This document shows positions 6,001 through 8,322 of a stretch of 8,322 nucleotides of DNA, one piece after another. The position numbers were made by a program. Source of the DNA: a virus (taxonomy: Duplodnaviria; Heunggongvirae; Uroviricota; Caudoviricetes); the IMG/VR virus record IMGVR_UViG_2579779049_000031, one strand, 5' to 3'. Each line of letters starts with the position of its first letter. Positions within the stretch are counted from its first letter, which is position 1.

Positions 6001-8322
6001 TAGCCGCTTTTTTCGCGGCATCACCTTTTGCCGATTTTTTCCCGGTATCCCCTTTTTTATGGTGCGTGAACTGCGCCAGACGCCAGGCCGCATCCAGTGC
6101 CAGTTTCGGATCAATGCAGAGGTTTTCCACCAGGATCCGCCCCATGGCTTTCACCGGATCGGGAAGACCATCCTCCATATATTCAATACCAGGAGACATC
6201 ACCGCGGACGGTGGCATCTCCAGATTGTTTTCGTCCGGCTGTGGTATTGCAGCCGCCTCACGGCGACGGGGTTTATCCTCCTGCTCTGATTTTTTCTGCC
6301 GGTAAACAGGAACCTCATCCACCTCCACCGTCTCGCATTGTTTACGGGCTATAAACGCAAGCACCTCAGGATCTTTTGCCAGCTGCGAGCCTTTAACCCT
6401 GGCGGTCTTCGCCGAATAACCGGCGGCAATGGCTGACGCTGTTTTGTTTTTCCCGGACATGAGCGCCAGCGCAAATTTTCGTTTTTGCGTTGTCAGCACA
6501 GCCTCCTCCCGGGTCCAGAACGCACTCAGCCGGGTATGGTTCAGCCCATTTTTCCCGGCGTCTCATGCCGCAAATGTTAACTGCTGCCTGGTTAACATTT
6601 GCTGAAAAAGCCAGTTAACATTTTTTTCGCACAACAAACTGAATAATAAAGATAAAAACCGCAAAAATGCCCGGGCAGCCAGTTAACATGTTAACTGCCC
6701 TGAAACGGGAATTTTTTCTCTGCGTGAGAGGGGGCGCGGTGTCCGGAGCGATCGTTTTTTTCGCCGGATGATCCCCCCCCGGGGCGGGTCACAGTCCGAT
6801 GATATCGTCTGCCCTGCCATGACCTCCGGACACCTCCGGCAGCGTCGGGGCCGGCATACCACCCGCCGCTTCACGAGCAGACTTTTGTCGATGGCATTCG
6901 GTACAGAGCGTCCAGAGATTCGTCTCCTCATTACCACCACCGAACTGAAGTGCAATTCGGTGATCGAGTTCACTGTCACAGAGGTCAACCACACGACCAC
7001 AGTGACAGCACTGCCCGGCATCCCTGAGCCAGATATGACGCTTGAGGGAAACACGTGCACTGCCACTGACACGACGCTGTTCACCCTTCAGAATATTCAC
7101 CCGCCGGGTGTTCAGAGTTTTGATTCTGCCCGGTAACGTACGAAGCACAGCCATGTAAAATCCTCGCCATATAGCTTGTCACCAGAGGAAAGAAAATGTC
7201 ATCGAAAAACCAGCCCCGCAGAACAACAACCCGCAACATCCGATTTCCAAACCAGATGATTGAACAAATTAACATCGCTCTTGACCAGAAAGGTTCAGAA
7301 AATTTTTCAGCGTGGGTTATTGAAGCCTGCAGAAGAAGATTAATTAATGAAAAATATTCTCAATTTGTACCCAACAAAGACAAACACGACCAGAGAACCT
7401 GTTCAGACAGGTTTACTTAAACGACTTATATATGACACAAAAAGCGACCACTAAAGTCGCTTTTTCTTATGGTAACAGGCAATAACGCTCTCAGATATTT
7501 TTTAGCATTTTTTTGACCGCGCGTTTCCGGACGTATTCTGTTCTCCTGTCCCTTTATATCGTCGGAATCCCCGCCGCTCTTCAAATCCCATTCCCAACTC
7601 AGAATGTAGTCTGTTGACCGCTTGTTTTATTTCGGTCAGGTTCACCGGTGAAACCGGAGTCCGGCGCGCCTTACGCAAACACTCTGCTCGTTTCTGTGCC
7701 GCCACTTTTCTTTTCTGGTCATCACTTAGCTGTACCATCACTTTTGCCCATCGTTCAGCTGCTCTCCGGTACAGTCCTTTTTTCTCCAGACATTCTGCCA
7801 GGTGATCATGTAGCATAAGTAACCTCCGTTTATCTACAGACTGCCATCCTGAATTAACCGTCCTTAATAAGACAACAATAAAAAACTAATTATATAAAAA
7901 CAATAAAAATAATATACAAAAAAACTAAACAACAAAGAAAAGCAAATCATATCTGGCATTTTGAACCGCCCCGGAAATCCTGGAGACTAAACTCCCTGAG
8001 AAAGAGGTAAACAGGATGACTAAAAATACTCGTTTTTCCCCCGAAGTCCGTCAGCGGGCGATTCGTATGGTTCTGGAAAGTCAGGATGAATATGACTCAC
8101 AGTGGGCGGCAATTTGTTCCATTGCCCCAAAGATTGGCTGTACGCCGGAGACTCTGCGTGTCTGGGTTCGCCAGCATGAGCGGGATACCGGGGGCGGTGA
8201 TGGTGGGCTCACCAGCGCTGAACGTCAGCGTCTGAAAGAGCTGGAACGTGAAAATCGTGAACTGCGCCGCAGTAACGATATCCTTCGCCAGGCTTCCGCT
8301 TATTTTGCGAAGGCGGAGTTCG

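Follow-up and report, generated by a model that had tools for sequence, protein, structure and literature searches.

A five-element repeat array beside the cohesive-end site of an Stx-type prophage: a probable cosB for an SF6-type small terminase

In an 8,322-bp stretch of a tailed-phage genome (IMG/VR record IMGVR_UViG_2579779049_000031, Caudoviricetes; the whole stretch is referred to as the window), a 289-bp gap at 6500-6788 separates an HNH endonuclease gene from the small terminase gene terS and holds five copies of the short motif GTTAACAT. By homology, this gap is the cohesive-end (cos) site of a lambdoid, Shiga toxin (Stx)-type prophage. The five elements probably form a lambda-like cosB that is bound by an SF6-type small terminase (TerS) in an HK97-like setting of HNH nuclease and 3' overhang. 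As judged from the near-identical phage in which it was mapped, the cut position is already known, and the elements refine the known picture rather than overturn it. No description of the repeats or of the cosB of this locus was found in the literature searched, and a search with the palindrome sequence came back empty.

Many Stx1, Stx2a, and Stx2c phages, BP-4795, phage 2851, 1717, and YYZ-2008 among them, have an HNH-terS junction that is 97-99% identical to this locus. Of 5426 complete E. coli genomes, 1281 carry its packaging module, frequently in multiple copies.

Results

The cut site lies in the second G/C block of the gap

An earlier note on this DNA had proposed that the gap is a cos site, and phage Lys8385Vzw bears this out. 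This Stx1 phage was induced and its virions were sequenced, and PhageTerm assigned a cos type with 3' ends and the sequence CGCCCCCCCT (Zhang et al, 2021; PMC7946995). Its gap is near-identical to that of the window, and its TerS and HNH proteins are 95% and 96% identical to the window's. The deposited record (MT225100) ends with ...GGACACCGCCCCCCCT (in longer form ...CCGGACACCGCCCCCCCT) and starts with CTCACGCAGAG... (in longer form CTCACGCAGAGAAAAAATTCCCGTTTCAGGGCAGTTAACATGTTAACTGG...); it is linearised exactly at the site matching window 6729-6738, and its first 160 bp hold all five elements. Moreover, the record of Burkholderia phage Bcep176, whose TerS is 38% identical, has an identical 10-nt sequence at its two ends (CGCACGTTCC in terS orientation). 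This terminal duplication aligns in the same register, directly before CTCACGC, and the record of vB_E175 starts 2 nt off that register. Most phage records are prophage extractions, whose ends are uninformative for cos. The end of the phi330 record, considered as cos evidence, was rejected: it stops inside terS and is arbitrary.

For the window prophage, a cut at 6729-6738 that leaves a 10-nt 3' overhang is thus predicted from the near-identical phage, for which it is known. The G/C-rich stretch of the gap consists of two blocks, a G-run that adjoins the HNH stop (6773-6780) and a second one at 6716-6750. Because the Lys8385Vzw cut, the record ends, and the Bcep176 duplication agree, cosN is assigned to the second block, 51-60 nt from the HNH stop, and not to the block adjoining the stop, where the earlier note had tentatively put it. 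The positions of all features are collected in Table 1.

Table 1. Features of the window. Cos coordinates are numbered from +1 (window 6728) toward terS.
Feature	Window position	Strand	Cos coordinate and orientation	Remarks
Portal gene	701-2065	-		
Protease-capsid fusion gene, 645 aa	2277-4214	-		
terL, 553 aa, ATPase and nuclease	4278-5939	-		Pfam TerL_ATPase and TerL_nuclease; overlaps terS stop
terS, 187 aa	5936-6499	-		Pfam Terminase_2 (PF03592), E = 1.3e-8
terS start, GTG	6499			Shine-Dalgarno GGAGGAGG at 6502-6509
E5, GTTAACAT on terS strand	6574-6581	-	+148 to +155	inverted partner of E4
E4, ATGTTAACCA	6589-6598	-	+131 to +140, direct	
E3, ATGTTAACTGGC	6610-6621	-	+108 to +119, direct	same 12-mer as right half of palindrome
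AT-rich spacer	6624-6679	-		T-tracts at +62, +71, and +79, ~9-10 bp apart
E1/E2, perfect 18-bp palindrome CAGTTAACATGTTAACTG	6680-6697		+32 to +49	9-nt arms, 100% complementary, no gap
E1			+34, inverted	
E2			+40, direct	
Cos-proximal segment CTCACGCAGAGAAAAAATTCCCGTTTCAGGG, including A-tract	6699-6728	-	+1 to +30	
Predicted cosN, 10-nt 3' cohesive end, CGCGCCCCCT on terS strand	6729-6738	-		by homology
G-run, GGGGGGGG on terS strand	6773-6780	-		45-52 nt upstream of right-hand cut
HNH endonuclease gene, 121 aa	6789-7154	-		Pfam HNH, E = 1.4e-6; PHROG 589 HNH endonuclease, E = 4.6e-44
DUF3950 (YnfO-like) open reading frame	7196-7420	+		
PerC homologue	7502-7816	-		PerC-family activator, Pfam E = 1.5e-42

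The segment between the cut and the first element is nearly invariant in the 66 distinct upstream sequences of close relatives and is still recognisable in distant genera and in satellites. A G-run recurs at about this spacing in those relatives from E. coli, Enterobacter, Pseudomonas, and Burkholderia for which the upstream sequence was read, as well as in satellite islands; that it serves as a cosQ-like or nuclease-positioning element is a guess. In PPompW prophages, ISEc20 of the IS110 family is inserted at the G-run (~6777; L301 2775-4233), just upstream of cosN. On the far side of ISEc20, these prophages lack the HNH and lysis genes and continue straight into tRNAs and Q; L162 likewise departs from the window upstream of the insertion point. 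The "terminase" coding sequence (185-793) of MT225100 (L290) starts 45 nt upstream of the conserved MLTTQKRK start and is thus probably annotated too long.

Five elements flank an AT-rich spacer

All five copies of GTTAACAT on both strands of the window fall within 6574-6695; 0.14 copies are expected, and none of 200 dinucleotide-preserving shuffles reaches five. On the terS strand, the consensus extends to ATGTTAACTG, and the fourth copy has ATGTTAACCA. Sequence scans reproduce the layout of the gap that the earlier note had described: five elements arranged as the 18-bp palindrome (E1/E2), a single copy (E3; CAGTTAACAT at 6612-6621, with GTTAACAT at 6614-6621), and an inverted pair (E4/E5; GCAAATGTTAAC and GTTAACATTTGC at 6570-6581 and 6591-6602, the arms being 9 nt apart). 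The array lies between cosN and terS, just inside the terS-side end, which is the side where lambda places cosB.

The AT-rich stretch that the note had placed after the palindrome is also real and contains spaced T-tracts. Their positions are kept in L085, L087, and L292 despite a diverged spacer sequence, and the spacer is likely to form a bend.

Elements are selectively conserved and change in concert

About 290 related loci (designated L) were gathered, in part by a scan with a TerS alignment, a single TerS query having confirmed none. The 66 distinct close relatives are >90% conserved nearly everywhere and too uniform for footprinting; the informative comparisons are those with L085, L087, and L292. 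L087 and L292 encode TerS proteins that are 65% and 84% identical overall to that of the window and keep the recognition-helix residues T32, R34, and V35. In L087, 37 of 38 element positions are identical to the window, compared with 93 of the 160 other positions (Fisher p 6e-7); the respective counts in L292 are 36/38 and 104/160 (Fisher p 1e-4). E1 to E4 hold their positions within 1-2 bp in both loci, while E5 is shifted by ~10 bp because a sixth element has been inserted 10 bp from E4. Further, the flank of E3 alters together with that of the palindrome, from TGGC in the window to ACCC in L085 and to CACC in L087, where ATGTTAAC-TGGC has become ATGTTAAC-CACC at both E2 and E3.

A concerted change of the motif itself is seen in L085 and L086, in which TAAACAT (ATGTTTATAC or ATGTTTAC) stands in place of the motif at all five sites, with positions unchanged; L085 contains no GTTAACAT and five copies of TAAACAT. 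L296, for which 92 nt are available, is of the TAAACAT type too. Among prophages with homologous TerS proteins, in which the earlier note had advised looking for the same element, L087 and L292 contain it in selectively conserved form, and one lineage shows a concerted change.

This pattern bears on the idea that the elements play no part in DNA recognition, being neutral leftovers of terS 5'-end duplications, or else an RNA structure or terminator in the late transcript. E2, E3, and E4 do begin with ATGTTAAC, like the ancestral terS start (ATG TTA ACx, Met-Leu-Thr), E4 continues in a terS-like manner, and the palindrome could form a hairpin followed by U-runs. However, the elements are far better conserved than the surrounding non-coding DNA and change in concert, unlike neutral relics. 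RNA folding across the palindrome does not reach significance (z = -1.77, with 15 of 200 shuffled sequences folding equally well), a search of the gap for terminator-like sites came up empty, and Rfam gave no match at E <= 1 in 6300-7300. On these grounds, the RNA and terminator readings were dropped, and we consider an origin without a recognition role most improbable.

TerS carries an SF6-type DNA-binding domain that varies with the elements

The AlphaFold model of the window's TerS comprises an N-terminal helix-turn-helix domain (residues 1-56), a disordered linker (57-110), and a helical C-terminal domain. The N-terminal domain is modelled with a predicted local distance difference test score >92 and contains four helices (4-14, 19-25, 30-41, and 44-56). 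Foldseek superimposes it on the DNA-binding domain of SF6 TerS (4zc3) with a template-modelling score of 0.84 and an rmsd of 1.6 Å, and sequence identity to 4zc3/2cmp is ~30%. A PDB profile search with TerS returned the SF6 and Pam5 proteins (E ~1e-3); Pfam gave no Nu1 match in TerS.

The residues that change alongside the elements map to the end of helix 2 and to helix 3. TerS proteins of the TAAACAT lineage differ within helix 2 or beside it (K19R and A25E) and within recognition helix 3 (A30E, T32S, and V35C). L083 serves as a control: its N-terminal domain is identical to the window's, its linker is heavily diverged, and GTTAACAT is kept. The linker (window 6170-6330) is hypervariable among otherwise near-identical phages, with 24 of 50 positions identical in P0010. 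At the 3' end of terS (6003-6056), a 27-nt tandem duplication (2 copies, 85% matches) lies within the lysine-rich C-terminal tail.

Distant relatives carry a shorter version of the site at the terS start

In distant relatives from Enterobacter, Kluyvera, Serratia, Pantoea, Proteus, Pseudomonas, and Burkholderia, the gap is short and consists of the G-run, the core (GGACACCGCGCCCCCTCTCACGCACAGAAAAAATTCCC), and one to three GTWAAC-type elements at ~+34 beside terS. Such an element at ~+34 is shared from E. coli to Pseudomonas and Burkholderia. Within Enterobacterales, T32 pairs with TTAAC and S32 mostly with TAAAC. Element count and orientation vary by lineage (1, 2 direct, 3 direct, 5, or 6), the three direct repeats being those of Pantoea relatives.

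In short-gap relatives (L003-L024 at 2488-2510), among them the Enterobacter class, the start codon of terS (ATG TTA ACA, Met-Leu-Thr) falls within GTAAAC-AT-GTTAAC. The window palindrome is orthologous to this start-codon site and lies at the same distance from the core, and E4 resembles the ancestral terS 5' end ATGTTAACAGCGCAG. Because the palindrome sits at the ancestral core distance and E4 is like the ancestral 5' end, duplication of this part of terS may have given rise to the array. In L003-L012 and L017 (Enterobacter/Kluyvera, ~2440-2510), an additional GTAAACAT or GTCAAC is found upstream of the cut, at a distance of ~35 bp, direct with respect to the copy at the terS start; candidate TerS sites thus flank cosN there. 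Where this class carries the upstream GTAAACAT, the window has GAAAAAAACGATCG.

The start-codon palindrome of the short-gap relatives suggests possible autoregulation by TerS. It thereby fits a regulatory reading in which the elements are operators of a dimeric regulator, such as the DUF3950/YnfO-like protein encoded nearby, controlling terS or antisense transcription. Both the palindrome and the inverted pair look operator-like, and E4 and E3 together make a sigma-70-like match on the plus strand (TTAACA-18-TAACAT, 6592-6621; two such sites compared with 0.4 expected). This match is directed toward cosN and HNH, antisense to terS, and we take it to arise incidentally from the motif. The terS strand showed no promoter-like site. 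Varying numbers and orientations of elements are ill-suited to a fixed dimeric operator. Moreover, the N-terminal RNIRFPN of DUF3950 is identical in GTTAACAT and TAAACAT phages, and the 41 distant and satellite loci tested all lack DUF3950, while most of them keep the core and a GTWAAC-type element. The YnfO-like operators that the earlier note had offered as an alternative are accordingly disfavoured, and regulation by any dimeric protein is very unlikely to account for the array.

Satellite islands combine a shared cosN with private repeats and a private TerS

A TerS homologue (P0063, listed in 244 blocks of the collection) is encoded in E. coli integrase-primase islands of ~8-11 kb (L297-L300), with terS at 1201 in L297/L298 and at 10001 in L299/L300. 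These islands contain an integrase, a primase (AAA_25 or D5_N), small open reading frames, the cos core, the TerS homologue, and a 307-aa capsid-like open reading frame; neither TerL nor HNH was found within 10 kb. The G-run and cut-site core, GGACACCGCCCCCCGT|CTCAT..., recur upstream of the island terS, and two direct AAAAGTTACAC repeats come next, in place of GTTAACAT. The N-terminal domain of P0063 is among the most divergent in the alignment (30 of 56 residues identical to the window's), and, outside the E. coli clade to which the window belongs, no other C-terminal domain is as close to the window's (42/70). A shared cosN combined with private repeats and a private TerS DNA-binding domain is what recognition of cosB by TerS predicts. 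The islands probably hijack the window's phage family. No description of this satellite family was found in the papers searched.

Weighing TerS against other partners of the array

The elements might instead be sites for HNH, TerL, or a host architectural protein. HNH, TerL, and the elements co-occur across the family, and the HNH protein is more diverged where the elements changed, with 84% identity (102/121) in L085 compared with 93% (113/121) in L083. Opposed to this are the satellites, which have their own repeats and their own TerS without HNH or TerL. Additionally, the HNH motif is the only Pfam match in the 121-aa HNH protein, TerL is 96% identical in L085, and a host factor would leave the lineage-specific concerted change unexplained. 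We regard a partner other than TerS as unlikely.

Several observations nevertheless weigh against TerS recognition of a lambda-like array. Within the clade, the co-variation of elements and TerS amounts to little more than a single event, possibly the joint transfer of a cos-terS 5' cassette by recombination, and the deep correlations are not phylogenetically independent; across the family, L013, L022, and L033 are exceptions to the T32/S32 rule. The divergence of HNH in L085 leaves this protein a possible specificity partner. A common linker-less TerS of 138 aa (P0036; L088/L089) adjoins unchanged elements. The integration host factor (IHF)-like match ATTCAGTTTGTTG at 6632-6644 in the spacer, with one mismatch, is no better than chance, nine such matches being found in the window and 7.7 expected, and counts only as a hint by its position. 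Centre-to-centre spacings of 8, 68, 23, and 15 bp show no obviously regular helical phasing, and no clean helical periodicity was found among the five elements. Finally, there is just one TerS site in HK97, which has been studied more closely than any other HNH-dependent cos phage.

Neighbouring genes

The HNH gene, which encodes the packaging accessory nuclease and is situated upstream of cos, adjoins cos and terS in all close relatives. Gene order proceeds from TerL through the protease-capsid fusion to the portal (701-4214), so that the portal follows the capsid; in HK97, the portal gene does not lie behind the capsid gene. The PerC-family activator homologue is a moron upstream of the packaging module, and an AT-rich tandem repeat with a 22-24-nt unit lies beside it (7874-7929). 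At the other end of the window (1-479), downstream of the portal gene on the minus strand, a 162-nt tandem repeat occurs in 3.0 copies with 93% matches. It probably lies inside a gene that runs off the window end and would code for a repeated 54-aa unit.

Discussion

We propose the following sequence of events. TerL and the HNH nuclease would cut at 6729-6738 and leave the 10-nt 3' overhang. Inside the first-packaged end, the five ATGTTAAC(TG) elements from +34 to +155 would act as a cosB-like array for the helix-turn-helix N-terminal domains of an oligomeric SF6/Terminase_2-type TerS, which hang on a flexible linker of ~55 residues. The T-tracts between the palindrome and the E3-E5 cluster would bend the DNA, possibly with the help of IHF, and one TerS assembly could thereby hold both clusters. 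TerL, bound to the C-terminal domain of TerS, would be set on cosN ~30 bp away, and packaging would proceed toward terS. Binding by TerS, the bend, and the oligomeric state with its stoichiometry are what we infer from the arrangement of the locus.

A bolder model, to which we lend only tentative credence, treats the TerS N-terminal domain and the repeat array as an exchangeable specificity cassette on a shared cosN. In this model, the array would have arisen by repeated duplication of the start-codon palindrome, the switch from GTTAAC to TAAAC would have occurred in concert with T32S and V35C, and a satellite family with private GTTACAC repeats would hijack Stx-type phages through the same cosN.

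The module is carried by many Stx1 and Stx2 phages. The cut site together with a likely TerS recognition code would indicate which prophages, defective prophages, and satellites are packaged by which helper, and this bears on the spread of stx and effector genes. A defined cos fragment could further be used for building transducible plasmids, and the natural TerS/cosB specificity pair (GTTAAC versus TAAAC) could serve as a model for DNA reading by an SF6-type small terminase in a cos phage.

Comparison with known systems

The designation "HK97-like" that the earlier note had applied to the locus holds for HNH, TerL, and the 10-nt 3' overhang, but not for TerS, which is of the SF6/Terminase_2 type. 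The cos of HK97 lies at the HNH-terS junction and has a 10-nt 3' overhang, and HK97 TerS binds one 15-bp site at +15 to +29, after an A-tract (PMC11331095). As in HK97 (gp74 HNH, gp2 TerL, gp1 TerS), cos in the window is located between HNH and terS, and terL, of the TerL_ATPase/TerL_nuclease type, follows right downstream. The overhang, taken from Lys8385Vzw by homology, is of the same length and polarity, and the candidate TerS sites likewise start tens of bp downstream of the cut, after an A-tract. In contrast to the single HK97 site, the window has five candidate sites from +34 to +155, and its TerS belongs to a different family.

Lambda has a cosQ-cosN-cosB layout, and in lambda and phage-inducible chromosomal islands (PICIs) the repeats are specific for the cognate TerS, whereas cosN is shared (PMC6739421). 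The window resembles the lambda arrangement (R3-I1-R2-R1, gpNu1, IHF bend) in having short repeats of mixed orientation on the terS side of the nick, from ~+30 to +160, with an AT-rich, probably bendable segment between the groups. It differs in its 10-nt 3' overhang (12-nt 5' in lambda) and in the presence of an HNH accessory nuclease. Moreover, an SF6/Terminase_2 TerS takes the place of the winged helix-turn-helix gpNu1, the repeat is an 8-10-mer instead of the 16-bp R, and the IHF-like match is at chance level.

With SF6 and SPP1 G1P, the window's TerS shares a homologous N-terminal helix-turn-helix DNA-binding domain. G1P recognises several short boxes on bent DNA. SF6 and SPP1 package by headful from pac, whereas the window's family has defined cohesive ends, as mapped in a near-identical phage. 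The closest system, Lys8385Vzw, has essentially the same locus with all five elements, and its paper gives only the 10-nt cos sequence (PMC7946995).

Among satellites, S. aureus SaPIbov5 and E. coli EcCICFT073 reuse the cos site of a helper. EcCICFT073, which encodes Rpp, keeps cosQ and cosN and has a different cosB (PMC6739421). The islands L297-L300 are similar in that they carry a helper-type cosN with private repeats at the cosB position. They encode a full TerS homologue in place of an Rpp-type adaptor, and their capsid-like open reading frame may be comparable to the Ccm of SaPIbov5.

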